A stretch of DNA of 64,000 nt, taken from Deltaproteobacteria bacterium. Lineage in GTDB: Bacteria; Myxococcota; Kuafuiibacteriia; Kuafuiibacteriales; Kuafuiibacteriaceae. The stretch spans positions 1-64,000 of the forward strand of contig JAVJQW010000017.1 of NCBI GenBank assembly GCA_040218735.1, written 5' to 3'. The notes beneath the pieces were generated by a model. The model had not been told where the DNA came from, made no database searches, and was given only the letters and a program-made list of their open reading frames with translations. The position numbers and the translations under genes are program-made. Of this stretch, positions 13,565-51,658 are shown piece by piece. The number at the start of each line of letters is the position of its first letter. The stretch's first letter is position 1.

Positions 13565-13571
13565 TCGTTTC

Positions 13572-20656: not shown

Positions 20657-20716
20657 CGCCGGCCATCATCGCCCGAGGGCGCCGAGCTGACCAAGACCTG
20701 GTACGCTGGCGCAGCC

Positions 20717-22408
20717 TTGAGCTTCGACGCCGAGACCACCCGGCACGTGGCGCCCTCGTCGGTCCACGGCGGCGCGCGGCTGAGGCTGGTGTTCGTCGGC
20801 GACGACTTCGTCCGCACCGTGGACCTCACCGGGACGCAGCCGCTGCGCGTCGGCCGCGGCGACGGCAACGACCTGGTCCTCACCGACTCGCGCCTCTCGC
20901 GAAGACACGCGCAGATCGAGCGCGACCCCCTGCGCATCACGGACCTCGGGAGCGCAAACGGCGTCCTGATCGACGGCGAGCGGATCGCACCGCAGCAACC
21001 CACGGAGTTCGCGCCCGGCGCGGCGGTGTCCCTCGGCGGGGTGATGATGCTCGTGCAGGTCGTCGAGCGCCCGAGCGAGCGGGTCCTCTGCACCCACGCC
21101 TACTTCGAGGCCCGCCTCGACGAGGAGGGGCGCCGCCGCACGCGTGATCGCCGAACGCCGTTCGCGGTGCTCGCGGTTCGACTCGAAGGCAAACACTCCG
21201 CCGACGTGCAACGCTCCTTGACGAGCAAACTCGGCCCCCTCGACGCCGTCGCGGCGTACGCTCCGAACGAGTACGAGATCCTGCTCCTCGACGCCGCACC
21301 CTCGCGCGCCGAGGCCGTCGCCGACGAGCTGCGCGAGGACTTCGCGCGCCTCGACCTCGTCGCGCACGTCGGCCTCGCGAGTTTCCCGAGCGACGGGCTC
21401 ACCGCACAGACACTCATCGCCGCGGCGCGCGCTTCACTCGAGGGGCGCGTGGTGCAGGAGCCCGCGCCGGTCGTCGTCGAGGACGAGACGATGAAGGCGC
21501 TCTACACGATGGTGGAGCGCGTCGCGCGCGGGACGATCACCGTGCTCCTCACCGGCGAGACGGGCGCCGGCAAGGAGGTGCTCGCGGAGGCGCTGCACGC
21601 GGCGTCGCCGCGGCGTCGCGGGCCGATGGTTCGCATCAACTGCGCCGCGCTGTCGGAGTCCCTCGTCGAGAGCGAGCTGTTCGGCTACGTGAAGGGGGCG
21701 TTCACCGGCGCCCTCCAGGACAAACGCGGCCTGATCGAAGCCGGCGCGGGTGGCACCGTCCTCCTCGACGAGGTCGGCGAGCTCCCGCCCGCGACGCAAG
21801 CCAAGTTGCTCCGCGTCCTCGAGACCGGGCGGCTTCGACGCATCGGCGGCATCGAGGATCGCGCGGTCGACGTACGCTTCGTGGCCGCGACGAACCGTGA
21901 CCTCGTCGCGGAGATCGAGCGCGGAATGTTCCGCGAGGATCTCTACTACCGCCTCAGCGGCGTCAGCCTCCACGTCCCTCCGCTGCGCGAGCGCCCGTCC
22001 GAGATCGCGCCGCTCGTGGATCGGTTCGTGGTCGACGCGTGTCGCGAGCTCGGCGTGCCTCCGCTGGTCGTCGACGAAGACGCGATGGCGTTGCTCGTCG
22101 AGTACCGCTGGCCCGGCAACATCCGCGAGCTGAAGAACACAATCGATCGCGCTGTGCTCCTCGCGGACCAGCGCATCACGGTCACGCAGCTCCCGGCCGA
22201 GAAGATGACGGCGAAGTGGTCGACGAAACCCATCGATCTGCCGCGAACGTCCAACCCGGAGCGCGACGCCGCACGCAAGCGCATCGAGGACGCCCTGCAA
22301 GCGTGCGCGGGCAATCAAACGCGCGCCGCCGAGAAGCTGGGTGTGTCGCGTCAGACGCTCGCGAACTGGCTCGACCGCTACGGCATCCCGCGTCCGCGCA
22401 GGCGCTGA
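20717..22408 (+). CDS. FHA + degenerate GGDEF-like + sigma54 AAA+ transcriptional activator
   Basis: FHA (GR, LSRRH, DLGSANG), GGDEF-fold segment with AYAPNEY in place of GGDEF, GETGAGKE, GAFTGA, HTH. Start (TTG 20717) approximate. Confidence 0.9.
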   Translation: MSFDAETTRHVAPSSVHGGARLRLVFVGDDFVRTVDLTGTQPLRVGRGDGNDLVLTDSRLSRRHAQIERDPLRITDLGSANGVLIDGERIAPQQPTEFAPGAAVSLGGVMMLVQVVERPSERVLCTHAYFEARLDEEGRRRTRDRRTPFAVLAVRLEGKHSADVQRSLTSKLGPLDAVAAYAPNEYEILLLDAAPSRAEAVADELREDFARLDLVAHVGLASFPSDGLTAQTLIAAARASLEGRVVQEPAPVVVEDETMKALYTMVERVARGTITVLLTGETGAGKEVLAEALHAASPRRRGPMVRINCAALSESLVESELFGYVKGAFTGALQDKRGLIEAGAGGTVLLDEVGELPPATQAKLLRVLETGRLRRIGGIEDRAVDVRFVAATNRDLVAEIERGMFREDLYYRLSGVSLHVPPLRERPSEIAPLVDRFVVDACRELGVPPLVVDEDAMALLVEYRWPGNIRELKNTIDRAVLLADQRITVTQLPAEKMTAKWSTKPIDLPRTSNPERDAARKRIEDALQACAGNQTRAAEKLGVSRQTLANWLDRYGIPRPRRR

Positions 22409-23816: not shown

Positions 23817-24713
23817 ATGATCTGCGACGACGTGGGTGTCTTCTATCTGCTCGCCTATATCATCGGTGGTGCCATCGTCGCGTTCGCGTCGCACGCCACG
23901 GTCACGAGCCTCGCAGACGGAGACTCCGTCGACGGCGCGCTGACGATCCTCTCGTTCGGCGTCCTGCTGATCCTCTGCGGCGGCGTGCTCCACACCATTC
24001 AGGTCAAAGGGGAGCGGGACGAGGACACGTCCCAGGGCCCGCCGATGGGTCTGGTGTACATCGCCCTGGGGCTGCTCGTGCTCCCGGTGCTCGTCGCGTG
24101 GGTGCAGTTCGAGCTGCACATGAACCCGCTGTGGATGTTCCCCATCACCACGATCGTCGGCGCGACGGGCCTCGTGTACCTCATCGCGTGGCGGCGCACG
24201 CTCCACGACAAGTTCGGCCCGGTGAAGCGCGCGATGGCGACGGCGATGGTCGGCCTGCCGCTGGGATTGTTCGCGATCGGGTTCCCGCTCGTGCACTTCA
24301 AGAACCACCTCACGACCGTGAACCTCGGGTTCTCGGACGAGCCGTCCGAGCCGAGGATCATCGCCATCGAAGCGCCCGATCCGGACCCGCCGATCGCGCC
24401 CATCGATCCGATCGGCGACGAGACGATGGAGTTGGTGAAGGCGATCGCGGAGGCCAAGGAGGTGAACATCGCCGACGAGGTCGCGGCGGGGCGCATCCGG
24501 GTCCTCGAGGACGGCACACTCGTCACCGTCCACGAGGACGGGACGACGACGCCGATCAACCAGGGCTTCGACTTCGACGAGGCGTGGAAAGAGGCGGAGC
24601 GCAACGACCGGGACGCTTCCCGCGAGAAGCGCGAGGCGCAGCTGAAGGCACACGCCGAGGAGGTCGAGCGTCTTCGCGCCGGTGGTCGTCTATTCAGTGG
24701 ACCGGATCACTGA
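23817..24713 (+). CDS. Hypothetical membrane protein (about 5 TM plus soluble tail)
   Basis: Hydrophobic helices, typical codon usage. Confidence 0.75.
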   Translation: MICDDVGVFYLLAYIIGGAIVAFASHATVTSLADGDSVDGALTILSFGVLLILCGGVLHTIQVKGERDEDTSQGPPMGLVYIALGLLVLPVLVAWVQFELHMNPLWMFPITTIVGATGLVYLIAWRRTLHDKFGPVKRAMATAMVGLPLGLFAIGFPLVHFKNHLTTVNLGFSDEPSEPRIIAIEAPDPDPPIAPIDPIGDETMELVKAIAEAKEVNIADEVAAGRIRVLEDGTLVTVHEDGTTTPINQGFDFDEAWKEAERNDRDASREKREAQLKAHAEEVERLRAGGRLFSGPDH

Positions 24714-25357
24714 ATCTCGGGCGGTCGTGGCGCCGACCCCGCGTGGTACCAACCCACCCGGTCACGCGCCGGTGAATTCGCGGAGGCGCCGACCGAGAAG
24801 TACAGCTCGCCCTGCGCGGCGTACACGTAGATGTTCGCGCGGTTGTCGGCGTCCCAGTACTGGTCGATCGGGCGCTGGCCGAACGCGGCGCGCGGCACCC
24901 CGGAGAGGCGCGTCGCGCTCCAGTCGTCGGCGATGCTGGCGCGCACGGCGCTGACCGCGTCGGCGACGAAGTCGGCGTAGGTGCGGGAGTCGGGGAGCCC
25001 CTTGCCGCGGAGGTGGAAGAAGTCCGGGCGAATGTGCTCCGGGAGGTTGCGACCTTCGCGCAGGCTGACGCGCTGGTTCGATCCGGCGATCGCCTCCGCG
25101 GCCTGGGTGACCTCGAGCCCGAGGACGCGCAGCAGCTTCTGCGCGGACACCGTCTTCTGACCGGTGCGGTCGAAGAACGCGAGCGCGTTATCGGCGGCGA
25201 GGCGTCCGGCGTCGTCGCGCTGGAGGATGCGTCGCGCCGAGGCCTCGGAGAGGCGTCCGTCGGCGCCGCCGGCGTCCAGGATCGCGTCGCGGAACTCGTC
25301 GCGCCACGCTTCGCCGAGCTGGTCGGGCGTCGGGGTGATTCCAGTCAGGCGCGTCAC
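24707..25357 (-). CDS. Hypothetical protein
   Basis: 216-aa ORF with normal composition; internal AGGADGRLS / AGSNQRVS repeat. Confidence 0.7.
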   Translation of the reverse strand: MTRLTGITPTPDQLGEAWRDEFRDAILDAGGADGRLSEASARRILQRDDAGRLAADNALAFFDRTGQKTVSAQKLLRVLGLEVTQAAEAIAGSNQRVSLREGRNLPEHIRPDFFHLRGKGLPDSRTYADFVADAVSAVRASIADDWSATRLSGVPRAAFGQRPIDQYWDADNRANIYVYAAQGELYFSVGASANSPARDRVGWYHAGSAPRPPEIQ

Positions 25358-25452
25358 GGCGTGGTTATCGGCGCGGCGCGGCCCGTGGTGTGCGCGATTG
25401 CATCGGACAAAGAGGTTGACCCACCCGGCGCGGGCCTCGATAGAACCGCGGC

Positions 25453-26370
25453 ATGGAGGCCGTTTCGCCGGATCCGCGCCTGTTCGGACGCCCCGACGAG
25501 GACGTCGACGCGCGGCTCTACCGGCGGATGCGCTTCATCCGGCGGTTCGAGGAGAAGCTCCTGTTGCTCTTCGAGGAGGGGATCCTCGCAGGCACCACCC
25601 ACTGCTCGATCGGCCAGGAGGCGGACGCCGTCGCGGTCATGGCGCACGTGCGGCCGGGGGACCACACGTTCAGCAACCACCGCTGCCACGGGCACTACCT
25701 CGCCCGCACCGGTGACGCGCTCGGGCTCTACGCCGAGATCATGGGTAAGGACGCCGGGGTCTGCCGCGGCATCGGCGGGAGCCAGCACATTTGCGCGCCG
25801 GGGTTCAAGTCGAACGGCATCCAGGGCGGCATCGTGCCGACCGCCGCGGGCATCGCGTGGGCGCAGAAGCTCGCCGGCGGCGACGACATCAGCGTGGTCT
25901 TCATCGGCGACGGCACCCTCGGCGAAGGCGCCGTCTACGAGACGCTCAACATCGCGCAGCTGTGGTCGCTGCCGCTGTGGATCGTCCTGGAGGACAACGG
26001 GTGGTCGCAGTCGACCCCGCTGGCCGCGAACTTCGCCGGGGACATGCGGATGCGGTTCGAGGCGTTCGGGCTCCCGGTCTCCGAGATCGACAGCACCGAC
26101 GTGAAGGCGATCGAAACGGTCGTCGCGGCCGACGCCGACCACGTCCGCACCACGCGGACGCCGCACGTGACGATCCTGCACACGTACCGCCTCTGCAATC
26201 ACTCCAAGAGCAGCGATGCGCGCCCCGAGGACGAGGTGAAGGCGCGCTGGGCGACGGAGCCGCTCGTCGTGCACGGGCCTCGTCTGCAAGACAGCTTGCG
26301 CGACACGATCGACGCCGACGTCGAGGCGGCGCTCGACGAGGTCATCGCCCACGCGAGGTCGCTGCCGTGA
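25453..26370 (+). CDS. ThDP-dependent dehydrogenase E1 alpha subunit
   Basis: IRRFEE, HCSIGQEA, NHRCHGH, GIGGSQH, ThDP motif GDG...EDN, TYRLCNHSKS. Confidence 0.93.
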   Translation: MEAVSPDPRLFGRPDEDVDARLYRRMRFIRRFEEKLLLLFEEGILAGTTHCSIGQEADAVAVMAHVRPGDHTFSNHRCHGHYLARTGDALGLYAEIMGKDAGVCRGIGGSQHICAPGFKSNGIQGGIVPTAAGIAWAQKLAGGDDISVVFIGDGTLGEGAVYETLNIAQLWSLPLWIVLEDNGWSQSTPLAANFAGDMRMRFEAFGLPVSEIDSTDVKAIETVVAADADHVRTTRTPHVTILHTYRLCNHSKSSDARPEDEVKARWATEPLVVHGPRLQDSLRDTIDADVEAALDEVIAHARSLP

Positions 26371-27377
26371 TCTACTCGAAGGCCCTCAACGAAGCGCTGC
26401 ACCGCGCGCTCGGTGAAGACAACCGCGTGGTCGTGCTCGGCGAGGACATCTCGGACCCGTACGGCGGCGCGTTCAAGGTGTCGCGAGGGCTGACCACCGC
26501 GTTCCCGGAGCGCGTGAAGACCACGCCGGTGTCCGAGCAGGCGATCGCCGGCATCGCGGCGGGGCTCGCGCTCGGCGGGTATCGGCCGATCGCCGAGGTG
26601 ATGTTCGGTGACTTCCTGTCGCTGTGTTTCGACCAGCTGCTCAACCACATCACGAAGTACAACGCGATGTACGCGGGCCAGACGACGTGCCCGGTGATGT
26701 TCCGCGCGCCGATGGGTGGGCACCGCGGCTACGGGCCGACGCACTCGCAGAGCATCGAGAAACACTTCCTCGGGATGCCGCACCTCAGGGTGCTCGCCGC
26801 GTCGCCGTACCACGCGCCGCACGACGCCTTCGCGGACTTCCTCGCGAAGGACGACCCGGTGCTCTTCGTCGAGCACAAGCTCCTGTACCCGAAGCACCTC
26901 ACGCTCCCCGAAAACGGCGCGGTCGGTGATTTCATGGCGCGCACCGAGTCGAGCCCCGGGGTGCTGCCGAGTGTGTGCCTGTCGCTCGTGCCGCGTGAGG
27001 ACTGCGCGTTGACCGTCGTCGCGTACGGGTACGAGGCGCAGCTCGCGGCGTCGGTGATCGAGAAGCTCGGCATGGAGGAGGAGCTGTTCTGCGAGCTCGT
27101 CGTCCCCGCGCAGATCGCGCCGGTCGACTACGCGCCGATCGAAGCGTCCGTCGCATCGACGCGCCGCCTCCTCACCGTGGAGGAGGGTACCGCCGGCTGG
27201 TCGTGGGGCGTTCAGATTGCGAGCTCGATCCAGCGCACGTTCTTCGGAAAGCTCGCGAAGCCGGTCGAGGTGCTCGCGAGCCAGCCCACCGTCATCCCGG
27301 GCGCGCGGCGACTGGAGCAGGAGATGCTCGTCGGCGCGCACCACATCGAACAGAAGATCCGCGAGGCCCTGTCGTGA
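26367..27377 (+). CDS. ThDP-dependent dehydrogenase E1 beta subunit
   Basis: LGEDI..YGGAFKV, TPVSEQAIAG, EVMFGDF, GPTHSQ, FVEHKLLY, TVEEG; GTG overlaps the alpha-subunit stop. Confidence 0.93.
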   Translation: MIYSKALNEALHRALGEDNRVVVLGEDISDPYGGAFKVSRGLTTAFPERVKTTPVSEQAIAGIAAGLALGGYRPIAEVMFGDFLSLCFDQLLNHITKYNAMYAGQTTCPVMFRAPMGGHRGYGPTHSQSIEKHFLGMPHLRVLAASPYHAPHDAFADFLAKDDPVLFVEHKLLYPKHLTLPENGAVGDFMARTESSPGVLPSVCLSLVPREDCALTVVAYGYEAQLAASVIEKLGMEEELFCELVVPAQIAPVDYAPIEASVASTRRLLTVEEGTAGWSWGVQIASSIQRTFFGKLAKPVEVLASQPTVIPGARRLEQEMLVGAHHIEQKIREALS

Positions 27378-28492
27378 ACGACGTCATCGTCCCGACCTCC
27401 GACGTGAACAGCGAGACCGGCGTCATCGTCGAGTGGAAGATCGCCGACGGCGCGCGCGTCGAGAGCGGTGACATCGTCGCCGACATCGAGACGAGCAAAG
27501 CCGTCATCGAAGTGCCGGTGACCACGAGCGGGTACCTCCTCCACCTCGCCGCGCAGGACGCGGAGGTGTCGTTGGCGACCGCCATCGCGCGCGTCTTCGA
27601 CACACCGGAAGCGCTCGAGGCCTACCGCGCGACGCTCCAGGCGGAGCTCGACGAAGCCGCGGTGCGAAACGCGGCCTCCGGCGTGCGGGCGACGCTCAAG
27701 GCGAAGACCCGCGCCGAGGAGCTCGGCGTGGACCTCACCACGCTCGACACCTCGCGATTGATCACCGTGAAGGAGGTCGAGGCGGCGGTCGCGCAGAACG
27801 TGGACCCGGCGACGCTCCCCGCGCCGCTGAAGGCCCCCGAGGATCAGGAGCGGGTGCTCCTCATCGGCGGCGCGCGCGGCGCGACGCAGGTGATCGACAT
27901 CTTCCGCGGCAACACCACCCAGACCGCGGTGGCGATCGTCGACGACGACCGTTCGAAGTGGGGCACCGAGGTCTACGGCGTCCCGGTGGTCGGCGGCTCG
28001 GACCGGATCGGGCCCTTGTTCGAGGCGGGTGCGTTCGACGCGGTCGTCATCGCGATCAGCACGTCGGTGAAGGCACGTGCGATGTTCCGCGAGCGGTGCG
28101 CCGCCCTCGGCGTCCCGCTGACGAACGCGATCGACGCGACGTCGAAGGTCGCCTCCGAAGTCACGATGGGCCGCGGCAACGTGCTGTGTGCGTTCGTGCA
28201 GATCGGCACGAGCGCGATCGTCGGCGACAACAACTTCATCTCCGCCTACAACTCGTTCGAGCACCACAACGTCCTCGGCTCCGACATCTCGACGGGCCCG
28301 GCGTGTGTGACGTCCAGCCGCGTGAAGGTCGGCGACCGCTGCCGCTTGGGCACGGGCATCTACATCGAGCCGGGCGTGGAGCTCGGCGAGGAAGTGCGGG
28401 TCGCGTCGGGTTCGGTGCTGCTGAAGTCGGTGCCGGCGAAGCACACGGTGAAGGCGAAGGTCGTGACAACGGTGGTCGTGCCGAACCGGTAG
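27374..28492 (+). CDS. Fusion: lipoyl domain + peripheral-subunit-binding domain + PglD/NeuD-type sugar acyltransferase
   Basis: Lipoyl motif IETSKAVIEV; PSBD-like ATLKAKTRAEELGVDL...ITVKEV; PglD_N Rossmann-like LLIGGARG..IVDDD..YGVPVVG; hexapeptide repeats with EHH at the PglD catalytic-His position. Confidence 0.85.
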   Translation: MNDVIVPTSDVNSETGVIVEWKIADGARVESGDIVADIETSKAVIEVPVTTSGYLLHLAAQDAEVSLATAIARVFDTPEALEAYRATLQAELDEAAVRNAASGVRATLKAKTRAEELGVDLTTLDTSRLITVKEVEAAVAQNVDPATLPAPLKAPEDQERVLLIGGARGATQVIDIFRGNTTQTAVAIVDDDRSKWGTEVYGVPVVGGSDRIGPLFEAGAFDAVVIAISTSVKARAMFRERCAALGVPLTNAIDATSKVASEVTMGRGNVLCAFVQIGTSAIVGDNNFISAYNSFEHHNVLGSDISTGPACVTSSRVKVGDRCRLGTGIYIEPGVELGEEVRVASGSVLLKSVPAKHTVKAKVVTTVVVPNR

Positions 28493-28520
28493 CCATCGCC
28501 GATTCGGCGTCGTCGAAAAA

Positions 28521-28615
28521 CAAAGAGACGAAGAGACTGGGAGGGTCAGAAGGCCCGTCCGAAGCCTCTGCGCTTTCCCAAGAATAAGACCTCTCTGTCC
28601 TCTCTGTCTCCCTGT
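28521..28615. repeat. Imperfect long inverted repeat (REP-like or bidirectional terminator) between convergent genes
   Basis: Purine arm CAAAGAGACGAAGAGACTGGGAGGGTC faces pyrimidine arm GACCTCTCTGTCCTCTCTGTCTCCCTGT. Confidence 0.5.
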
Positions 28616-28633
28616 GGATCTTCGAGGATCACT

Positions 28634-29365
28634 TCAGCGGGGACACCTCGCAGTCGCCGGGAGCGTCTGCTGCGACGTCACCCGCCCCACCGTCACGGTG
28701 ACGATCCCCGTGCTCGGGGTGTCACCATCGAACACGACGGTCGCGGTCGGCGCACCCTGGGAGACGATCACGATGTTGCCGGCGTCCGCGTAACAACCCC
28801 CGACCTCACTGTGCAGACCGTTCGCGGCGATCGTCACGTCGTGCTCCGCGTCCGCGTACGTCCCGGCGCCGTCGATCGTGAGCGCGTCGTTCGCGACCAC
28901 GAGCTGTCCGTCGAGCTGCACCTGCGTCGCGCCGTCGACGGTGAGGTCCACGTGGGTCTCCACCGAGCCGGGCGCCACGCCGACGCTGACGTCGCCGGCG
29001 TAGACCACGCCGTCGACCGCGAAGTCGTCGAAGACCACCGACACCATCGCGCCGGTCATCGTGGAGATCACGATCGTGTAGTCACCGGCGTAGACATGCG
29101 CGCCGACTTCACACGAAGCGCCGAAGTCCAAGTTCAACCCCATGGGGACCGCCGTGATGTTCACGCACGACATGTCCGAGACGCCGACCGGCGCGCGCGG
29201 TTCGCGCATGTCCTGAGCTTCGGCGGCGTCGGCGCCGGTGCTCGCGCCCATCGTCAGCGCGGCGGCGCTCTGCCCTGCGATGTACGCCGCGTCCTCGGCG
29301 ACCTGGTCTTCGGGAGAGGCGCCACACGCGGTGAGGAGGGCGAGACCCATGAGCATCTTCTTCAT
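28634..29365 (-). CDS. Beta-rich lipoprotein, unknown function
   Basis: MKKMLMGLALLTAC lipobox; LDFGASC and GCYADAG motifs. Confidence 0.8.
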   Translation of the reverse strand: MKKMLMGLALLTACGASPEDQVAEDAAYIAGQSAAALTMGASTGADAAEAQDMREPRAPVGVSDMSCVNITAVPMGLNLDFGASCEVGAHVYAGDYTIVISTMTGAMVSVVFDDFAVDGVVYAGDVSVGVAPGSVETHVDLTVDGATQVQLDGQLVVANDALTIDGAGTYADAEHDVTIAANGLHSEVGGCYADAGNIVIVSQGAPTATVVFDGDTPSTGIVTVTVGRVTSQQTLPATARCPR

Positions 29366-29416: not shown

Positions 29417-31270
29417 TCAGTCGTGAACGCTCCACGCGCGGAGCGTCCCGGAGTCACCGAACGCGTCGGTGTCGAACAGACAGAACGTCCACGCGCCGGA
29501 CGCCGAGCCGGAGAACCCGCCCACGGCTTCGTCGGTGAACCCGAACGAGCCGCCCTGACGGGGGAACGTCCCGGTGCCGAACACCTCCACCGTGGTGCCG
29601 TTGTGCTCCAAGGTGCCGCGCAGGATCGAGCGCCAGTCGTGGACGCCGTCGAGATCCATGCGGAGGTCCGACGCGTCGCCGCTCGCGGAGACGTTGATCG
29701 TGTCGCAGACCACGCCGTTGTCCTGCGTCGCGAGGTTCGGCGAGCTCGAGCCCGACCACCCCGTGTTCCCGCCGCCGCCGTTGCAGCTCGCGGAGAGCGA
29801 GAAGGACCACGTGTCGAGCGTGCCGACGTCCTGCCCCGCGAGGTCGCGAACCGAGAGGCGCCACGCGCCGGACGCGCTCTCGCCGTCGAACGCGGCGAGG
29901 TCCAGGTCGTTGATCACCACGTCGTCGGCGCTACGGCCTTCGCGGTTGTGCAGCGTGACGGTGGTGCCGGCGGGCGAGGTGAGCTGCACGGTGAGGTCGC
30001 CACGCCAGGTGTGGGTGATCGCGAGTGACACCGTGAAGTCGGTGATGGTGCCGACGCCGTTGACGTTGATCGTCGACACCACGCCGCCCGCGTTGTTGTC
30101 CGGGATGCCGACCGGCGTGTCGATCGAAGTGCGCGTCCCCGACGCGCAGTTGCTGTTGCCGTTGTTCGTGATCACCGAGATGCTCGCGACGTTGCTGACC
30201 GCGCCCGCATCGTCCTGCGCCTGCGCGCTGATCGTGCCCGGGCCATCGCCGGAGCTCGCGCTGTTCCAAGTCACCTCGAAGGGCGCCGAAGTGTCGTCGA
30301 GGCGCGTGCCGTCGGGGAACAGGAACGCGACGCGGGTGACGGTTCCGTCGGCGTCGGACGCGTTCGCACGTACCGTGACGTTTCCGCTGAGGGTGGCGCC
30401 GTTGGACGGCGACACGATGCTCACGGTCGGCGGGACGTTCGGGCTGACGTTGCTCTGAATCCACGCGCTGAACGAAGAGACACGCGCGTACATCCCCGGG
30501 AAGCGTGCGTCGGCGCAGCCGAAGCCCCAGCTCACGACACCCGCGAGGAGACGTCCACCGTTGCCGTCCGGAACGGTGAGCGGGCCGCCGCTGTCGCCCT
30601 GGCACGAGTCACGACCGCCGACGCCGAGCAGGCCCGCGCCGATCTGGTCGGAGGTGATGCCGCCGCCGTAGGCCTGGTTCGCCTGGTCCTGCGAGACGAT
30701 CGGCACGGTGACCTCCTGCAGCGTATCCGGCGAGGAGCCGCCTGAGCGCAGCGTACCCCAGCCGCTGACGATCGCGTTCACGCCGGGGTCGGTGAGGCCG
30801 TTCATGGCGTCGCCGGCGGTGGCGATCGGGATCGCCTGCACGTTGCCGTTGAAGCTGAGCGGCTGCGAGAGGTGGAGCAGCGCGACGTCGCGTCCGCGCT
30901 CCGGCTCGATGTACCCCGGGAAGGGGAGGAGCTGATCGACCGAGCGAACCTGCGCGCTGCCGTTGATCGACGAGCGACGCGTCACACCGGCCGCGATGCG
31001 GAGCGTGGAGACCGACGTCCCCTCGATGCAGTGCTGCGCGGTGAGCACCCAGTCGGGCGCGATGATGGAGCCGCCGCAGAACCAACCGAAGTTGGTCGAC
31101 CCGACGGAGACCTGCCACGGGTGCTGGCTGATGGAGGTGCTCTGTCCGCCGACGATGGCGGACTTACCGACCCCTTCTTCAACGGGCGACTCCTGGGGTG
31201 CCTCCGGGGGAGTAGGCACACACGCTGCGATCGAAGAGACGAGGACAACGGCGAGTCGCTTGTGTTTCAT
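29417..31270 (-). CDS. Secreted trypsin-like S1 protease lipoprotein with Ig-like domain and two proprotein-convertase P-like domains
   Basis: Lipobox IAAC; IVGG, LTAQHC, DVALL, CQGDSGGP; PPTVSIVSP Ig-like domain; ITHTWRGDL...G.W.L P-domain. Confidence 0.95.
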   Translation of the reverse strand: MKHKRLAVVLVSSIAACVPTPPEAPQESPVEEGVGKSAIVGGQSTSISQHPWQVSVGSTNFGWFCGGSIIAPDWVLTAQHCIEGTSVSTLRIAAGVTRRSSINGSAQVRSVDQLLPFPGYIEPERGRDVALLHLSQPLSFNGNVQAIPIATAGDAMNGLTDPGVNAIVSGWGTLRSGGSSPDTLQEVTVPIVSQDQANQAYGGGITSDQIGAGLLGVGGRDSCQGDSGGPLTVPDGNGGRLLAGVVSWGFGCADARFPGMYARVSSFSAWIQSNVSPNVPPTVSIVSPSNGATLSGNVTVRANASDADGTVTRVAFLFPDGTRLDDTSAPFEVTWNSASSGDGPGTISAQAQDDAGAVSNVASISVITNNGNSNCASGTRTSIDTPVGIPDNNAGGVVSTINVNGVGTITDFTVSLAITHTWRGDLTVQLTSPAGTTVTLHNREGRSADDVVINDLDLAAFDGESASGAWRLSVRDLAGQDVGTLDTWSFSLSASCNGGGGNTGWSGSSSPNLATQDNGVVCDTINVSASGDASDLRMDLDGVHDWRSILRGTLEHNGTTVEVFGTGTFPRQGGSFGFTDEAVGGFSGSASGAWTFCLFDTDAFGDSGTLRAWSVHD

Positions 31271-31686: not shown

Positions 31687-32154
31687 ATGCCTTTGAACGA
31701 CGTGAAACTCGGGGAGAACGTCCGGGTCTTCCACCCGGATTTGGTCAACCTCTACGGCTGCCAAATCGGCGACGAGACCAAGATCGGCACCTTCGTCGAG
31801 ATTCAGAAGAACGCCTCCGTCGGCGCCCGCTGCAAGATCTCGTCGCACACGTTTGTGTGTGAGGGCGTAACGATCGAGGACGAGGTCTTCGTAGGACACG
31901 GCGTCATGTTCATCAACGACAAGGTCCCGCGCGCGACCGCCGAGGGCGGCCAGCTCCAGACGGAGGCGGACTGGGCGGTCGTCGAGACCGTCGTGAAGCG
32001 CGGCGCATCGATCGGCAGCGGCGCGACGATCCTCTGCGGCGTCACGATCGGTGAGGGCGCGATGGTCGGCGCGGGCGCCGTGGTCACGAAGGACGTCGCA
32101 CCCAACGCGACGGTCGCCGGCTGCCCGGCGCGCCTCCTCGCACGCCAGCCCTGA
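31687..32154 (+). CDS. Hexapeptide sugar N-acyltransferase (WbpD/FdtC-like)
   Basis: VNLYGC, FVEIQK, SHTFVCEGV, MFIND, VAGCPAR. Confidence 0.92.
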   Translation: MPLNDVKLGENVRVFHPDLVNLYGCQIGDETKIGTFVEIQKNASVGARCKISSHTFVCEGVTIEDEVFVGHGVMFINDKVPRATAEGGQLQTEADWAVVETVVKRGASIGSGATILCGVTIGEGAMVGAGAVVTKDVAPNATVAGCPARLLARQP

Positions 32155-32179
32155 GAACCCGTCCCCAAGAACCCGTTCG

Positions 32180-33259
32180 ATGCGCATTCACGTCATCAGC
32201 CCGATGTGGCCGTCCACCGAGTCGACCCACACGGGGGTGTTCGTGAAGAACCTCTCGACGTCGCTCGCGGCGCTCGGGTTCGACGTCGACAACACCGCGG
32301 TCCTCGCCGGCAAAGGCGCGGGCCGCCGCGGTCGCCTCGAGAAACATGCGACCCTCGGCGCGCGGATCCTCCGGCAGGCAAGACAACCTGCGGACTGCGT
32401 CCTCGTCCACGCACCCACCTGGTTCGCGCCGCTGATCGAAGCGGTGCGCAAGGACAAGAAGCTCGTCGTCCACACCCACGGCGGCGAGGTCTATCCGCAC
32501 TCGCGCATGGAGGCGCGCACGCAGCCCGCGGTGCGGTGGCTGTGCCGCCGCGCGGACCTCGTCGTCACGCCGTCGCGCTACTACCGCGGCGAGGTGCAGC
32601 GCGCGTTCGGCGTCGCCGAGGAGCGGATGTTCGTCTCACCGTCGGGCGGCGTCGACACGGAGCGCTTCGCGCCGCTCGACCAGACCACCGCCCGCGAGGG
32701 GCTCGGGCTGCCGGGCGCCTTCTACGTCGGGTTCATGGGGCGCATCGTCGACGACAAGGGTTGGGACGTCTTCGTCGACACGATCGGCACGCTGGTCCGA
32801 CGCGGGCACGACGTGCGCGGCCTCGTCGTCGGCCAGGGCGAGGCGCGCGAGCTCCTCCTCGAACGCGCCGCCGCGCGGTGTGTCGCGGAGCGAATCCACA
32901 TGCTCGGAACGGTCCCGCAGGCGGAGCTACGGCCCTACCTCGCTTCGCTCGACGTCTTCATGTTCCCCACGCGCCGCGGCGCGGAGGCGCTCGGTCTGGG
33001 GCCGATCGAAGCGCTCGCGACCGGCGTGCCGGTCGTAGGTTCCAACGCCTACGCGGTGCCGGAGTACGTCGTCGACGGTGAGACCGGGTGGCTGGCGCCC
33101 GCGCGCGACGTCGAAGCGTTCGCGGCTGCGGTCGAGCACGTGATCACGCTGGACGCGACGGAGCGCGCCGCGTTGTCCTCGCGCGCGGTCGAGATGGGGC
33201 GGCGCTACGATACGCGTCGCGTGACGGAGGCGCTGGCCGCGCGCCTGTTGGAGCTGTGA
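32180..33259 (+). CDS. Glycosyltransferase family 4
   Basis: HTHGGE, GVDTERF, GRIVDDKG, EALGLGPIEALATG (E-x7-E). Confidence 0.92.
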   Translation: MRIHVISPMWPSTESTHTGVFVKNLSTSLAALGFDVDNTAVLAGKGAGRRGRLEKHATLGARILRQARQPADCVLVHAPTWFAPLIEAVRKDKKLVVHTHGGEVYPHSRMEARTQPAVRWLCRRADLVVTPSRYYRGEVQRAFGVAEERMFVSPSGGVDTERFAPLDQTTAREGLGLPGAFYVGFMGRIVDDKGWDVFVDTIGTLVRRGHDVRGLVVGQGEARELLLERAAARCVAERIHMLGTVPQAELRPYLASLDVFMFPTRRGAEALGLGPIEALATGVPVVGSNAYAVPEYVVDGETGWLAPARDVEAFAAAVEHVITLDATERAALSSRAVEMGRRYDTRRVTEALAARLLEL

Positions 33260-34125
33260 TGGATCGATCGCTGATCATCGACGTCGGGATGCACGTCGGC
33301 CGGGACACGGAGTTCTACCTGAAGAAGGGCTTCCGAGTGGTCGCGGTGGAGGCCGACCCGCGGCACGTCGAGGCCGTGCAAGCTCGCTTGCGGAGCTACA
33401 TCGACGACGGGCGCCTCACGATCCTCAACGTCGCGATCAACACCTTCGACGGCGAGACGGACTTCTTCGTGAACCCCGAGCACGACGACTGGGGGACGGT
33501 GTCGCCCGAGTTCGTGCGACGGAACGTCGAGGTCTACGGCAGCCGCCACGAGACGGTGAAGGTGCGGTGCACGCGCTTCGAGAACGTGCTGAACGAGTTC
33601 GGCGTGCCCTACTACCTCAAGGTCGACATCGAGGGCCTCGACGACCTCTGCCTCGAAGCGCTCGACGGCTTCGACACCGCGCCGCGCTTCGTGTCGATCG
33701 AGCCGGATCAGAAGTCGTTCGAAGGTGCGTTCAACGAGCTGTCGATGTTGTGGCGGCTCGGCTACCGCGCGTTCAAGATCGTGAACCAGGGTCGCAACCG
33801 CGAGCTGCGTTGCCCCGACCCGCCGCGCGAGGGGGTGTACGTGGAGCAGCGCTTCGACGGCGCCTCGAGCGGCCTCTTCGGCGAGGAGTCGCCGGGGCCC
33901 TGGCGCGGCATCGAGGACACCGTGGTCGCGTGGCGCAGCATCCTCGCGCAGCAACGGCGCTTCGGCGACCAGGGCGGCTGGGAAGGCGAGTGGCGCGGCA
34001 CGCTCGCGCACAAACTCTACGAGCGCTACCGCCGCGTGCGGAAACAAGGGCCGCTGGGCTGGTACGACTTCCACGCGCGTCACCTCGACCCGGCGGGGCG
34101 GCGCTCGAACGTCACTTCGGCGTGA
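33259..34125 (+). CDS. FkbM family methyltransferase
   Basis: DVGMHVG, VVAVEADP, YLKVDIEG; ATG overlaps the GT4 stop. Confidence 0.9.
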   Translation: MDRSLIIDVGMHVGRDTEFYLKKGFRVVAVEADPRHVEAVQARLRSYIDDGRLTILNVAINTFDGETDFFVNPEHDDWGTVSPEFVRRNVEVYGSRHETVKVRCTRFENVLNEFGVPYYLKVDIEGLDDLCLEALDGFDTAPRFVSIEPDQKSFEGAFNELSMLWRLGYRAFKIVNQGRNRELRCPDPPREGVYVEQRFDGASSGLFGEESPGPWRGIEDTVVAWRSILAQQRRFGDQGGWEGEWRGTLAHKLYERYRRVRKQGPLGWYDFHARHLDPAGRRSNVTSA

Positions 34126-34465: not shown

Positions 34466-35197
34466 ATGCTCCGAAAGCTGAACCTCGCCGCCCTCGCGCT
34501 CCTCCTCGGCTGCGCGTCCAACAACGCACCCCCACCGGCGTCCGCGCCCGCCACCGCAACCGAGATGGAGCCGCTGCACGCCGTGATGCAGCAGCACTTC
34601 GTGCACCTCGACGATCTCCAGAAGGCCGTCATCGCCGGTGACCTCACGCTCGCGAAGCAGTCGGCGCAGTGGGTGATGGACCATCACGTCGAGGTCCGCA
34701 ACGAAGGCTGGAAACCGCACCTCGCGAAGCTGGAGGAGGCCGCCGCGCACGTCACGCAGGCGCCGGATCTCATGCAGGCCTCGGTCGGCGCCGCGCGCGT
34801 CGCTGGGTCGTGCGGGAGCTGCCACGAAGCGCACGGAATCCGGATGCACTTCGGCGCCGTGCCCGCCGCCGAGGGCGACGACACCCGCGCGCACATGAAG
34901 CGGCACCAGTGGGCGGCCGACCGCCTCTGGGACGCCGTCGTCGGCAACTCGGACGCGGTCTGGAACGAAGCGACCACGGCGCTCTCGGACGCGCCGCTGC
35001 ACCTCGCAGACGGACGCGAAGGACCGACCGACCTCGCGCTCGAGATGATCAACGAAGCCGCGGAGGTCGTGCACCGTGTCGGCGAACAGGGCGAGCAGAC
35101 GAAGGGACGTGACGCCCGCGTCCAGGCGCTCGGTGAGTTCCTCTCCACCTGCGCCGCGTGCCACTCGCAGCTCGGGATCGATCCCGAGGCGCAGTGA
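34466..35197 (+). CDS. Diheme cytochrome c lipoprotein (two cytochrome c'-like helical repeats)
   Basis: Lipobox LLGC; CGSCH and CAACH, each at the end of a helical repeat. Confidence 0.85.
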   Translation: MLRKLNLAALALLLGCASNNAPPPASAPATATEMEPLHAVMQQHFVHLDDLQKAVIAGDLTLAKQSAQWVMDHHVEVRNEGWKPHLAKLEEAAAHVTQAPDLMQASVGAARVAGSCGSCHEAHGIRMHFGAVPAAEGDDTRAHMKRHQWAADRLWDAVVGNSDAVWNEATTALSDAPLHLADGREGPTDLALEMINEAAEVVHRVGEQGEQTKGRDARVQALGEFLSTCAACHSQLGIDPEAQ

Positions 35198-35608: not shown

Positions 35609-35739
35609 GGGCGCGACCTTCGCACGGCCGTGACCGTTCCGTGACCCGCGGATGCCCGCCATCACCCCGAAACTCCTTGACCGATCGGAACGTCCCTTCG
35701 ATAGAACGCACACGGGCCCACCTCGCCCGAATTCGAGCC

Positions 35740-36789
35740 ATGACGAAGACCAAGCTGGGGATGATCGGTTGCGGCTATTGGGGCCCCAACCTCCTGCGAA
35801 ACTACAACGCCCTCGAGTCGTGCGACGTCGTCCGCGTCGCGGATCGTGTCCCGGAGCGACGCGCGTTCATCGAGAAGAACTACCCGAACGTCGAAGCCGT
35901 CGAGGACGGCGCGCAGGTCCTCGAGGACGCGTCGATCGAGGCGGTGGTCGTCGCCACCCCTGCCGCGACGCACGGCGCGCTCGCGAGGGCGGCGCTCGAA
36001 GCCGGCAAGGACGTCTTCGTCGAGAAGCCGATCGCGATGAGCACCGAGGAGGCGATCGCCCTCGCCCGCCTCGCGGAAGAAAAAGGCCGGGTGCTGATGG
36101 TCGGCCACACCTTCCTGTTCAACGCCGCGGTGCGCGAGGTGAAGCGGCGCATCGACGAGGGGGAGCTCGGGCGCGTCTACTACCTCTACAGTCAGCGCCT
36201 CAACCTCGGCATCGTGCGCGGCGACATCAACGCCGCGTGGAACCTCGCGCCGCACGACGTGTCGATCGCGAACTACCTGATCGGCGCGGATCCGATCCGC
36301 GTCTCCGCGACGTCGGTGCAGGCGCTCCAGCCGGAGGCGCCGCGCCTCGACGACGTCGTGTTCATGTCGCTCACCTACCCGGGCGATGTCGTGATGCACA
36401 CCCACGTGTCGTGGCTCGACCCGCGCAAGGTGCGGACGATGACCGTCGTCGGCGACAAACGCATGATCGTCTACGACGACGTCGCGACCGACAAACTCGC
36501 GATCTACGACAAGGGCATCACCAAGGGTGACCCGGTGCCGGAGGAGCAGGCGACCAGCTTCGCGCGCCACCGCATGATCACCCGCGCGGGTGACCTCACG
36601 ATTCCCAACCTCCGCGTGCCCGAGCCGCTCGCCGTCGAATGCAAACACTTCATCGAGTGTGTGCAGACGCGCGCGACGCCGCTCACCGACGCGTGGTCCG
36701 GCGTCGCCGTGACCGCTGCGCTCGAGGCTGCGGACCGTTCACTCGAAAACGGCGGAGCGCCCGTCGACATCTCCATTCCCAAGCGCTGA
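35740..36789 (+). CDS. Gfo/Idh/MocA oxidoreductase (NDP-sugar dehydrogenase, WbpB-like role)
   Basis: IGCGYWGPN, FVEKP, LMVGHTF, NLAPHD, SWLDPRKVR. Confidence 0.93.
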   Translation: MTKTKLGMIGCGYWGPNLLRNYNALESCDVVRVADRVPERRAFIEKNYPNVEAVEDGAQVLEDASIEAVVVATPAATHGALARAALEAGKDVFVEKPIAMSTEEAIALARLAEEKGRVLMVGHTFLFNAAVREVKRRIDEGELGRVYYLYSQRLNLGIVRGDINAAWNLAPHDVSIANYLIGADPIRVSATSVQALQPEAPRLDDVVFMSLTYPGDVVMHTHVSWLDPRKVRTMTVVGDKRMIVYDDVATDKLAIYDKGITKGDPVPEEQATSFARHRMITRAGDLTIPNLRVPEPLAVECKHFIECVQTRATPLTDAWSGVAVTAALEAADRSLENGGAPVDISIPKR

Positions 36790-36815
36790 GTTTCCTACAC
36801 CGAGGGCAGGCACCC

Positions 36816-37943
36816 ATGACTACGAACGAAACCGTCCCCTTCGTCGACCTCGTCGGCCAGTTCCACCGCTACGAAGACGAGCTGATGACCGCCATCCGCG
36901 GCGTGCTCGAGAGCGCGTCGTTCATCGGCGGCAAACCCGTGAAGGACTTCGAGGCCGCGTGGGCCGAGTACTGCGGCACGAAGAACGCGGTCGGCTGCGG
37001 CAACGGCACCGACGCCATCTACCTCGCGCTCCGCGCGCTCGGCGTGGGCCCGGGTGACGAGGTCATCACGGCGGTCAACACGTTCATCGCGACGTCGGAG
37101 GCGATCACGATGACCGGCGCGAAGCCGGTGTTCGTCGACATCGACGACGCGACCGCGCTGATCGACGCGTCGAAGATCGAGGCGGCGATCACCGAGCGCA
37201 CGAAGGCGATCATCCCCGTGCACCTCTACGGGCAGCTCGTCGACATGAAGCCGATCCTCGCGATCGCCGAGAAACACGGGCTGAAGATCGTCGAGGACAC
37301 CGCGCAGGCGCACGGCGCGATCGACGACGGCAAGCGCGCCGGCACCTTCGGCGACGCGGCGACGTTTTCGTTCTACCCGGGCAAGAACCTCGGCGCGTAC
37401 GGCGACGGCGGCGCGGTCATCACGGACGACGACGCGCTCGCGGAGCAGATCCGCAAGATCGCGAACCACGGCCGCAGCACGAAGTTCGGTCACGAGATCG
37501 AAGGCGTGAACTCGCGCCTCGACGGCCTGCAGGCCGCGATCCTCGGCGTGAAGGTGAAACACCTCGACACGTGGATCGACGAGCGGCGCGCGGCCGCGGC
37601 GCGCTACGACCGCCTCCTCGCGGAGCTGGGCGACGCGATCGTGCTGCCCACGGTGCGGCACGCGACGTCGCACGTGTTCCACCTGTACGTCTGCCGCGTG
37701 CAGGACCGCGACGGGCTGCGCAAACACCTCGGCGAGCAGAACATCCAGAGCGGCATCCACTACCCGACGCCGCTGCACCTCCTCCCCGCGTACAGCCACC
37801 TCGGCCAGGGCGAGGGGACGTTCCCGGTCGCGGAGAAGATGGCGAAAGAGATCGTGTCGCTGCCAATCTCGCCGGAGATCACCGAGGCCCAGCAGGTGCG
37901 CGTCGCGAAGGCCGTCGCCGAGTTCGTGGGTGCGAGCCGATGA
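36816..37943 (+). CDS. DegT/DnrJ/EryC1/StrS sugar aminotransferase
   Basis: NGTDA, PVHLYG, EDTAQAHG, SFYPGKNLGAYGDGG, NSRLD. Confidence 0.95.
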   Translation: MTTNETVPFVDLVGQFHRYEDELMTAIRGVLESASFIGGKPVKDFEAAWAEYCGTKNAVGCGNGTDAIYLALRALGVGPGDEVITAVNTFIATSEAITMTGAKPVFVDIDDATALIDASKIEAAITERTKAIIPVHLYGQLVDMKPILAIAEKHGLKIVEDTAQAHGAIDDGKRAGTFGDAATFSFYPGKNLGAYGDGGAVITDDDALAEQIRKIANHGRSTKFGHEIEGVNSRLDGLQAAILGVKVKHLDTWIDERRAAAARYDRLLAELGDAIVLPTVRHATSHVFHLYVCRVQDRDGLRKHLGEQNIQSGIHYPTPLHLLPAYSHLGQGEGTFPVAEKMAKEIVSLPISPEITEAQQVRVAKAVAEFVGASR

Positions 37944-38953
37944 AGGCCGCGGTCGTCGGCGCCGGTTACTGGGGTCCGAACCTCATCCGCAACCTCCTGT
38001 CGACGCGACGCCTCGACAACGTCGTGGTCTGCGACATGGACGAGGCGCGCCTCGACAACGTGAAGCGTCGCTTCCCGTCGGTCGAGACGACGCGCGACTT
38101 CGACGCGGTCCTCGGCGACGAAGCCATCGAGGCGGTGCTCCTCGCGACGCCGATCTCCACGCACGGTCCGCTCGGCGTGCGCGCGATCGACGCGGGCAAA
38201 CACGTCTTCATCGAGAAGCCGCTCGCGTCGTCGGTGGAGGACGCGAACCAGCTCATCGAGGCGGCGAAGGCGAAGAGCCGCGTGCTGATGGTCGGACACA
38301 CGTTCGAGTACTCGCCGCCGGTGCTGCGCACGAAGCAGATCATCGACAAGGGTGAGCTCGGCGACATCTTCTTCATCTCGGTGATGCGCGTGAACCTGGG
38401 CCTGCACCAGCGCGACGTCTCCGTGATCTGGGACCTCGTTCCGCACGACTTCTCGATCCTGTTCTACTGGCTCGGCGAGTCGCCGTCGTTCATCTCGGCG
38501 TTCGGCCGCGACTGCGTGCAGACCGGCATCCCGGACGTCGCGTTCCTGAACCTGCGCTTCCCGAGCGGCGTCATCGCGAACATCGAGGTCGCGTGGCTCG
38601 CCCCGTCGAAGCTGCGTCGCACGGCGGTCGTCGGTCAGCGCAAGATGCTGGTGTACGACGACACCGAGAACATCGAGAAGGTGAAGATCTACGACCAGGG
38701 CGTCGACTTCCAGGACCCGGAGACGTTCGGCGAGTTCAACCTCTCCTACCGCACGGGTGACATCGTCAGCCCGAAGCTCCCCTCCGCGGAGCCGCTCGCG
38801 AAGGAGATGGAGCACTTCCTCGACTGCATCCAGACCGGCGAGACACCGCGCACGGACGGCATGTCCGGGCTGCGCGTGGTGGAGGCGCTGGAGGCGGCCG
38901 AGAAGTCGCTCGTTACGGGCAAGCCGGTGGAGCTCCCGGGGCGCACGTGGTGA
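37940..38953 (+). CDS. Second Gfo/Idh/MocA oxidoreductase
   Basis: VGAGYWGPN, FIEKP, LMVGHTF, DLVPHD; ATGA overlap with the DegT gene. Confidence 0.93.
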   Translation: MKAAVVGAGYWGPNLIRNLLSTRRLDNVVVCDMDEARLDNVKRRFPSVETTRDFDAVLGDEAIEAVLLATPISTHGPLGVRAIDAGKHVFIEKPLASSVEDANQLIEAAKAKSRVLMVGHTFEYSPPVLRTKQIIDKGELGDIFFISVMRVNLGLHQRDVSVIWDLVPHDFSILFYWLGESPSFISAFGRDCVQTGIPDVAFLNLRFPSGVIANIEVAWLAPSKLRRTAVVGQRKMLVYDDTENIEKVKIYDQGVDFQDPETFGEFNLSYRTGDIVSPKLPSAEPLAKEMEHFLDCIQTGETPRTDGMSGLRVVEALEAAEKSLVTGKPVELPGRTW

Positions 38954-51425: not shown

Positions 51426-51658
51426 GTCGACGTACGAGTGCACGGGCCGGACCAACCATCATTCGAAGGGTGCACGGCGCTGAGACGACGACGTTCGTTT
51501 CACTGGAACGGTGGAGTCGCGTCGCTCCGACGCGCACGAACAGGCAGCTAGGAGCGCACGCGAGCGCGATCGGTGTTTTGTGACAACGACCCGAGCCTGC
51601 GTCACACCGGCGGATGGGCCGCACGCGACGAGTCAGCCGCAAGCTACGTTGACAGCAA

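Follow-up and report, generated by a model that had tools for sequence, protein, structure and literature searches.

The locus described here raises the question of what an E2-like protein, encoded directly behind an E1 pair, does when its acyltransferase core belongs to a different enzyme class. It lies in a window of 64,000 nucleotides (the whole stretch of DNA analysed here, with a G+C content of about 69%) from contig JAVJQW010000017.1 of a myxococcotal bacterium. On the forward strand, a triad of genes encodes the alpha and beta subunits of a thiamine diphosphate (ThDP)-dependent E1 of the 2-oxoacid dehydrogenase type and a fusion protein. This protein joins a lipoyl domain and a segment resembling a peripheral subunit-binding domain (PSBD) to a predicted sugar acyltransferase of the PglD/NeuD class. 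A preliminary description of the locus had interpreted the triad as a lipoyl-channelled route to acylated amino sugars. On the evidence below, the chances appear about even that the triad forms a cut-down 2-oxoacid-dehydrogenase-type machine for acyl transfer to an amino sugar, likely a nucleotide-linked one, and not for the production of acyl-CoA. The genes and the segments of the fusion protein are the following.

25453..26370, forward strand: E1 alpha, ThDP-binding subunit, 305 amino acids (aa); PF00676 (E1_dh), E=9e-42
26367..27377, forward strand: E1 beta, 336 aa, GTG start inside the GTGA overlap; Transket_pyr and Transketolase_C
27374..28492, forward strand: fusion protein, 372 aa, GTG start; lipoyl, PSBD-like, PglD_N-like and left-handed beta-helix parts
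27374..27601, forward strand: lipoyl domain (residues 1-76), K42 codon at 27497-27499; PF00364, E=2e-8
27677..27796, forward strand: PSBD-like helix-loop-helix (residues 102-141), with AlphaFold2 helices 108-117 and 132-140
27848..28123, forward strand: PglD_N-like nucleotide-binding domain (residues 159-250), aligned to the N-terminal domain of PerB
28124..28432, forward strand: left-handed beta-helix (residues 251-353), His297 codon at 28262-28264
28433..28489, forward strand: conserved C-terminal tail (residues 354-372), with 70% mean identity the most conserved segment

Translational coupling of the three genes had been claimed before, and GTGA is indeed read at both junctions, so that each stop codon overlaps the next start. 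A promoter and terminator scan of 25200-28800 gave no signal exceeding that of shuffled sequences. No RNA data set figures among 22 sequencing runs listed as holders of the sequence.

Architecture of the fusion protein and its E1 partners

The AlphaFold2 model of the fusion protein was built from 61 homologues and has a mean pLDDT (predicted local distance difference test) of 80. It begins with a lipoyl barrel (1-76), which is followed by a long helix (78-101) and two short ones (108-117 and 132-140); a linker rich in proline and alanine then leads to an alpha/beta domain (159-245) and the beta-helix. Pfam recognises Biotin_lipoyl (PF00364, residues 6-72) and Hexapep. In Foldseek comparisons the lipoyl domain shares the fold of lipoyl domains from pyruvate dehydrogenase (PDH) and 2-oxoglutarate dehydrogenase (OGDH), with template modelling (TM) scores of 0.75-0.82 by target. 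Lysine K42 of the ETSK motif, the predicted lipoylation site, is retained in 117 of 119 family representatives, and both ETSK and the FEHH motif of the beta-helix (H297, H298) are invariant across all 61 aligned homologues. The lipoyl domain of the preliminary description is thereby upheld, as is the lack of a canonical E2 core: the 2-oxoacid_dh family (PF00198) has no match in the fusion protein or the window, and a genome-wide search matched it only outside the window. NCBIfam models of E2 proteins cover only the first 100-160 or so residues.

The claimed subunit-binding domain was recovered as a modelled and conserved two-helix segment; since Pfam does not recognise it, we call it PSBD-like. 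Its mean identity among 60 homologues is 63%, compared with 25% and 38% in the flanking linkers, and it is conserved to the same degree as the catalytic domains. Complex models of two E1 beta chains with fusion residues 96-150 yielded ipSAE values of 0.63, 0.62 and 0.64 (best of three controls, 0.10), a mark which was attained by 58 of 80 solved complexes and by 2 of 110 mismatched pairs. Contacts agreed between runs to at least 85% at a partner pLDDT of 76; they involve positions 188, 190, 207-208 and 235-239 of E1 beta and 105, 107-110, 128-129 and 131-132 of the fusion protein. Because a like complex, the E1/PSBD complex of G. stearothermophilus, has already been solved, this pass indicates likeness and not binding.

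The C-terminal half matches the NeuD_NnaD model TIGR03570 over residues 161-360 (E=6e-32, 110.9 bits, under the cut-off of 160.8). With the last 200 residues as query, Foldseek ranked PerB first (E=5e-10, TM 0.73 by target), followed by the acetyltransferase domain of PglB, VioB and PglD. The PerB match spans 201-205 columns at TM values of 0.71-0.75 by target, and phmmer aligns residues 161-355 to PerB with E=1e-16. In the PglD_N-like domain, R160, G165, D190 and R235 are each retained in between 105 and 118 of the 119 representatives (D190 in 118). In the beta-helix, H297 takes the aligned position of the histidine exchanged in the PerB mutant structures 4eaa and 4eab and is kept in 118 of the 119, E/D296 in 113 and H298 in 105. 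A PglD_N domain followed by a beta-helix with the residues EHH had been read from the sequence earlier; the fold and the invariant motif hold, but Pfam PglD_N has no match in this copy at E<0.01. The C-terminal tail is poorly modelled as a monomer (AlphaFold2 pLDDT <50) and carries K or R at position 360 in 111 of 119 representatives.

Both E1 subunits appear to retain the residues for acylating a lipoyl arm, as judged by alignment to human PDH. The E1 alpha of this enzyme is the closest solved relative of the triad E1 alpha with a single-protein query (132 bits); the E1 alpha profile A3 scores 187 bits against it, compared with 111 against a 2-oxoacid dehydrogenase of T. thermophilus and about 90 against branched-chain 2-oxoacid dehydrogenase (BCKDH). 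The ThDP motif GDG...N and the pair H250-S251 are invariant in 19 of 19 sequences; the latter is aligned to YRYHGHS of the human subunit, so that H250 takes the place of its outer-loop histidine. In E1 beta, E57 and H126 are invariant in all 24 sequences and correspond in the alignment to E59 and H128 of the human PDH subunit. According to the available part of a study on that enzyme, beta H128 and the outer-loop alpha histidine serve the reductive acetylation of lipoate, and beta E59 cofactor activation (PMC2663715). The nearness of E1 alpha to its PDH counterpart makes a small substrate of the triad E1 likely, though E1 alpha falls far under the pyruvate-specific cut-offs (203.6 against 393.85 for TIGR03182, 178.3 against 321 for NF006667). 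Weak matches of E1 alpha to transketolase and 1-deoxy-D-xylulose 5-phosphate (DXP) synthase families are found in Pfam and NCBIfam.

Conservation and genomic context of the triad

A word-indexed search detected 523 proteins at E<=0.001 among 8000 candidates. Among the 120 matches listed, lengths are 363-400 aa, query coverage 96-100% and identity 52-100%. Named sources comprise Micromonospora, Actinoplanes, Dactylosporangium, Catellatospora, Allorhizocola and a metagenome-assembled genome (MAG) of the Acetobacteraceae, and most named homologues are annotated merely as “biotin/lipoyl-containing protein”. Exhaustive phmmer against 1.84 billion representatives gave 197 clusters (50% identity) at E<=1e-30, mostly full length and with identity down to 27%. 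In the ESM Atlas, several clusters of 51-339 members from Chloroflexota, Pseudomonadota, Actinomycetota and Planctomycetota combine Biotin_lipoyl with Hexapep, and PglD_N is matched in part of their members. Three genome samples contained 3 triad carriers among 41, 3 among 401 and 3 among 301 genomes; a broad family that is rare per genome fits an accessory, horizontally moving trait. Larger fused forms of 652-2000 aa were not detected at E<=1e-20 in a search that is itself weak evidence. A full-text literature search, with subscription journals mostly outside its coverage, returned no description of the fusion and no link between N-glycolyl sugars and an E1; one paper retrieved (PMC4875605) proved irrelevant, as “lipoyl” there denotes lipid chains.

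That the fusion might be an assembly chimera, as the preliminary description had considered, is excluded by the hundreds of full-length homologues in several phyla together with two independent assemblies. Contigs from two other studies cover all 3040 bases of the triad gap-free, one of 15,278 bp with 34 differences and one of 38,117 bp with 94 differences. Relative to the closest relative, dN/dS is 0.19-0.22 for each triad gene, which points to purifying selection on all three.

Gene order was compared in 86 related loci (6 genomic and 80 metagenomic), which together with the window make 87 sources. E1 beta lies directly upstream of the fusion gene in all 45 loci with at least 1100 nt of upstream sequence, and of the 33 loci with 2100 nt or more, 32 have both E1 genes directly ahead of it. 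The sole exception is L006 (5443-6872), where the fusion gene is preceded by no more than the final 98 residues of E1 beta, in turn behind an unrelated open reading frame (ORF) of 840 aa, and E1 alpha is absent; decay or rearrangement of the copy, or a mis-join, may account for this.

In a sample of 401 Actinomycetota genomes, with four candidates per genome scored, a search with the fusion protein recovered no carrier at E<=1e-40 other than the centre genome. The E1 alpha query revealed two further carriers in the same genomes, L133 (G431:C4) and L134 (G376:C6); five of the 401 genomes tallied with it (G163, G061, G282, G361 and G217) are flagged as unpublished and enter into no other result. 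This divergent clade is 27% identical in the fusion and 51% in E1 alpha, and Pfam matches Biotin_lipoyl, PglD_N and Hexapep; the fusion gene is located upstream of E1 alpha in one case and downstream on the opposite strand in the other. Beyond the E1 alpha relatives of the triad type (67% and 51% identity), values in this sample fall to 41% or less, and the context there is uninformative. Because the three genes have been kept together through such divergence and rearrangement, they can be taken to work together, and because the arrangement is conserved across phyla, a chance arrangement is excluded. The neighbours of L133 encode Wzz, a MurJ/MATE-like flippase and a PQQ-propeller protein, those of L134 a sulfotransferase, a glycoside hydrolase and a subtilase; no DegT gene was found in the 19 kb read in these loci.

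The triad does not replace a housekeeping complex. Three canonical E2 cores are encoded in its own genome and 2 to 5 in each of five other carriers; their presence in all six carriers examined rules out a role as canonical E2 replacement, and the module supplements the canonical complexes. Its genome also encodes, elsewhere, a lipoamide dehydrogenase (E3; 497 bits, above the curated cut-off), LipA and one protein of the LipB/LplA family. Within the window there is no lipoamide dehydrogenase homologue, as had been noted before; a weak match on the same contig falls outside it.

For the wider neighbourhood, genes were called in the 87 sources by an ORF picker guided by GC3 and then clustered. 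Calling recovered the fusion gene in 74 sources and missed it in 13, including L002, which stand outside the count; 26 sources with at least 4 kb outside the triad were taken as long loci. DegT sugar aminotransferase genes, the commonest neighbour type, occur in 13 of these, GFO/IDH/MocA oxidoreductase genes in 10, and either of the two in 18. This association is far above chance, because the own genome of 11.6 Mb holds 6 DegT genes. Polyprenyl-phosphate sugar transferases, NAD-dependent epimerase/dehydratases and family 2 glycosyltransferases (GT2) recur as well, and no recurrent gene for an E3 or an acyl carrier protein (ACP) was seen in the clustered neighbourhoods. L002, which is 65% identical, carries on one strand genes for Wzy_C, the triad, a 471-aa protein that fits no known family, a small transferase of the hexapeptide type, a family 4 glycosyltransferase (GT4), a GFO protein, DegT and a second GFO protein. 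Two Chloroflexota MAG loci (L004, 3237-5486; L005, 7180-9430) have the triad followed by genes for a conserved 219-aa protein without Pfam family and a 493-aa COX1-like membrane protein.

In the window itself, the sugar genes begin 3.2 kb downstream of the triad and extend to about 12 kb. For several of them the longest ORF is given.

31687..32154, forward strand: small hexapeptide acyltransferase, a probable associate, 155 aa; Hexapep, E=6e-19
32051..33259, forward strand: GT4 glycosyltransferase, longest-ORF start, true start probably later
33088..34125, forward strand: FkbM-family methyltransferase, longest-ORF start
35641..36789, forward strand: GFO/IDH/MocA oxidoreductase, best NCBIfam match UDP-GlcNAc 3-dehydrogenase, under the cut-off
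36639..37943, forward strand: DegT/DnrJ/EryC1 sugar aminotransferase, longest-ORF start; PF01041, E=1e-122
37571..38953, forward strand: second GFO/IDH/MocA oxidoreductase, Pfam match from residue 125, true start probably about 37940

The order GFO-DegT-GFO is the same as in L002. A second protein of the left-handed beta-helix type was detected near the triad in only 4 of the 87 sources: besides the window, with its small hexapeptide acyltransferase, these are L001, L002 and L039, which hold orthologues of it. In these four, either enzyme may acylate the DegT product, and a di-N-acylated sugar is possible. Amid the sugar genes, a 243-aa ORF (34466-35197, forward strand) has weak cytochrome c-type matches (CXXCH; Cytochrom_C_2, E=6e-4, under the cut-off). 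The group is closed by a class V pyridoxal phosphate (PLP) enzyme (38947-40122, forward strand; Aminotran_5, with weak SufS-, PvdN- and EgtE-like matches) which has no counterpart among the other clustered loci. Speculatively, an enzyme of such a fold might in principle convert an amino acid into a 2-oxoacid.

The genes adjoining the triad belong to no Pfam family, except for an antisense trypsin-like protease with P-domain. The divergently transcribed upstream neighbour (24707-25357, reverse strand) is without a Pfam family and without a match in the ESM Atlas. The protease (29417-31270, reverse strand) is of the secreted trypsin type and carries a Big_7 domain and a P-domain of the proprotein-convertase kind; L001 has it (87% identical), L002 does not. 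Farther away, the window encodes a polyprenyl-phosphate hexose transferase (10753-12204) and two FHA and sigma54 activator genes (in 12242-14930 and 19142-22408), each beside a Ser/Thr protein kinase gene and typical of myxobacterial-style signalling. A 2104-aa protein (40833-47147, reverse strand) with FG-GAP, RHS-repeat, TcdB_toxin_midN, YD-shell and pretoxin-HINT parts shows a polymorphic RHS/Tc-type toxin architecture, and next to its gene lies a 1430-aa ORF without Pfam family (47163-51455, reverse strand).

Proposed reaction and competing explanations

A sequence of steps can be proposed for the triad as an acyl transfer machine. The ThDP-dependent E1, an alpha2beta2 assembly, would decarboxylate a small 2-oxoacid, by default pyruvate or a close analogue, and reductively acylate the fusion protein's K42-bound lipoyl group, as the retained catalytic residues suggest. 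The beta-helix would form the core of the assembly, presumably as a trimer like that of PglD-class enzymes, and the PSBD-like segment may tether E1 to it, as the docking model suggests. The S-acyl-dihydrolipoyl arm would then swing into the active site of the beta-helix, where His297 would activate a nucleophile and the acyl group would be transferred to it; the likeliest nucleophile is the amine of a nucleotide-linked amino sugar bound by the PglD_N-like domain. The reduced arm would be re-oxidised by the housekeeping lipoamide dehydrogenase. More tentatively, we propose that the transfer onto the nucleotide amino sugar is direct and free of CoA and starts from a 2-oxoacid or a ketose phosphate, which would give glycans with N-acyl groups, such as glycolyl or propionyl, that have no acyl-CoA pool in the cell, and would make the triad one more kind of lipoate-dependent enzyme system. 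By argument only, an unusual acyl group is more likely than acetyl, because a cell rich in acetyl-CoA has little reason to maintain such a machine for acetyl groups.

From the preliminary interpretation, the E1 pair, the E2-like scaffold with a PglD/NeuD-class core and the enrichment of DegT and GFO genes stand, but the link with these genes is not universal. This and several other observations weigh against amino-sugar acylation from a lipoyl arm. The expected sugar-gene neighbourhood is present in 18 of the 26 long loci, whereas 8 hold neither DegT nor GFO; loci of this kind adjoin genes for enolase, dihydrouridine synthase (Dus), esterase or NHL-repeat proteins. In the window, the triad and the sugar genes do not adjoin: they are separated by a pair of antisense genes, for a 243-aa protein of no known family and for the trypsin-like protease, and DegT is 8 kb away. 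The separate hexapeptide acetyltransferase, encoded beside the GT4 gene, could serve the DegT product of the window. As to the scaffold, Pfam E3_binding (PF02817) reaches only E=0.11 over 16 residues of the PSBD-like segment, and the docking score may stem from the model's familiarity with the G. stearothermophilus complex already solved. The E1 substrate is not readable from the sequence, pyruvate or a close analogue being the default guess.

The active site departs from its class as well. In PglD, VioB, Pcryo_0637 and PerB, an asparagine seven residues before the catalytic histidine is strictly conserved, according to the available sections of PMC9271549. In the fusion protein this position, placed by a PerB alignment that is ungapped from GD to H, is S290; it is serine in all 61 close homologues, and the 119 representatives have serine in 95 cases, alanine in 14 and threonine in 5, asparagine never being among the three commonest residues. 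Because this asparagine is replaced, chemistry or acceptor may differ from PglD-type N-acetylation. Together with a family-specific Asn-Asn pair at 286-287, the site looks like a remodelled PglD type, which would fit a different donor geometry but is no proof of one. As a guess, K/R360 of the tail could match Lys206 of VioB, which binds a CoA phosphate, and would then favour a retained CoA binding; the CoA contacts of VioB are K206, R170 and R189 in the portion of PMC9271549 available.

Best placed among the alternatives, if still unlikely, is that the beta-helix is a non-homologous replacement of the E2 core which yields acyl-CoA by handing to CoA the group carried on the lipoyl arm, or that bound CoA relays this group to a sugar acylated at the same site. 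The PglD-class fold binds acetyl-CoA between its subunits (PMC9271549, as far as available), and by microscopic reversibility its histidine-based site could take a thiol nucleophile. The conserved K/R360, a remodelled acceptor side with S290 in place of asparagine and the 8 long loci without nearby amino-sugar genes would suit such an enzyme too. A nucleotide-binding domain with strongly conserved R160, G165, D190 and R235 is hard to reconcile with it, as are the enrichment of the module beside DegT and GFO genes, the canonical E2 cores already present in all six carriers examined and the lack of a recurrent E3 gene beside the triad.

Improbable, in our view, is an acceptor other than a nucleotide amino sugar, with O-acylation of a sugar or polymer, as annotated for NeuD-type proteins, or acylation of another amine. 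The best NCBIfam model spans O- and N-acetyltransferases, the asparagine of the N-acetyltransferase class is missing, some triads stand alone among unrelated genes, and the divergent clade lies near Wzz, a MurJ-like flippase and a sulfotransferase with no DegT in the 19 kb read. Against this stand DegT as the commonest neighbour (13 of 26 long loci) and the nearest relatives of solved structure, namely PerB, the acetyltransferase domain of PglB, VioB and PglD, all of which N-acetylate nucleotide amino sugars.

We see an equally small chance that, with the mechanism otherwise unchanged, the E1 resembles QncN/QncL, takes a C2 unit from a ketose phosphate and delivers glycolyl, which would lead to N-glycolyl glycans. 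The subunits of Qnc/SclQ, of 305, 338 and 386 aa in the available text of PMC6335953, compare with 305, 336 and 372 aa here, a likeness by size and description, and the weak transketolase and DXP-synthase matches of E1 alpha point the same way; the closest solved relative of E1 alpha is nevertheless PDH E1 alpha, and no ACP gene recurs near the triad. That the lipoyl arm is not the donor at all, the beta-helix using free acetyl-CoA like PglD and the lipoyl/PSBD part only recruiting or regulating, is very improbable: it would agree with the intact catalytic histidine and overall PglD-class fold, but not with the lipoyl lysine in 117 of 119 representatives, the near-universal adjacency of E1, the lipoate-acylation residues kept by E1 and the apparent purifying selection on all three genes.

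Relation to known systems and significance

The proposed acyl transfer machine shares its overall plan with the E2 proteins of PDH, OGDH and BCKDH, in which an N-terminal lipoyl domain, a helical segment that is PSBD-like in the fusion protein, flexible linkers and a C-terminal catalytic domain follow in the same order and the gene is translationally coupled to those for E1 alpha and E1 beta. It differs from them in that the chloramphenicol acetyltransferase (CAT)-like 2-oxoacid_dh core is exchanged for a PglD-class domain with left-handed beta-helix, in the absence of an E3 gene at the locus and in its likely acceptor, a sugar and not CoA. With the sugar N-acetyltransferases of class I (PerB, 4ea7; PglB domain, 4m98; VioB, 7txp; PglD, 3bsy) the fusion protein has in common the bilobal fold and the aligned histidine with a preceding acidic residue. 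It is set apart from these enzymes by the extension of 158 residues with lipoyl and PSBD-like parts, by serine for asparagine seven residues before the histidine, by H298 and the Asn-Asn pair, which are specific to the fusion family, and by a TIGR03570 score under the cut-off; its donor is probably the lipoyl arm and not free acetyl-CoA.

A possible precedent in logic, to be taken as a lead, is the glycolyl loading by QncN/QncL/QncM and SclQ1-4 in natural-product pathways, where a PDH-like ThDP enzyme charges a lipoyl arm for biosynthesis and not for energy metabolism; the parts described in the available text are a ThDP subunit, a pyrimidine-binding/transketolase-C subunit and a lipoyl-acyltransferase (PMC6335953). 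The lipoyl protein of Qnc keeps the canonical acyltransferase domain and passes its unit to an ACP, whereas the triad has a beta-helix and no linked ACP.

The best NCBIfam match to the lipoyl part is the acetoin dehydrogenase E2 AcoC (NF011457, E=8e-12), of which only profile positions 5-101 match, the catalytic parts being unrelated. Some AcoC proteins combine a lipoyl domain with a catalytic domain that is not CAT-like.

Very few uses are known for lipoate, itself a cofactor of great age, and only five lipoate-dependent complexes have been characterised according to the available part of PMC6067878. If the proposed reaction is true, a lipoyl arm that feeds a sugar acyltransferase would add a biosynthetic use of lipoate, and the E2 scaffold would prove to be rebuildable around an unrelated, presumably trimeric, catalytic fold. 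For glycoengineering, the triad would offer a path from keto acids to acylated nucleotide sugars. In nature, such a module could explain unusual N-acyl groups on the surface glycans of some bacteria.

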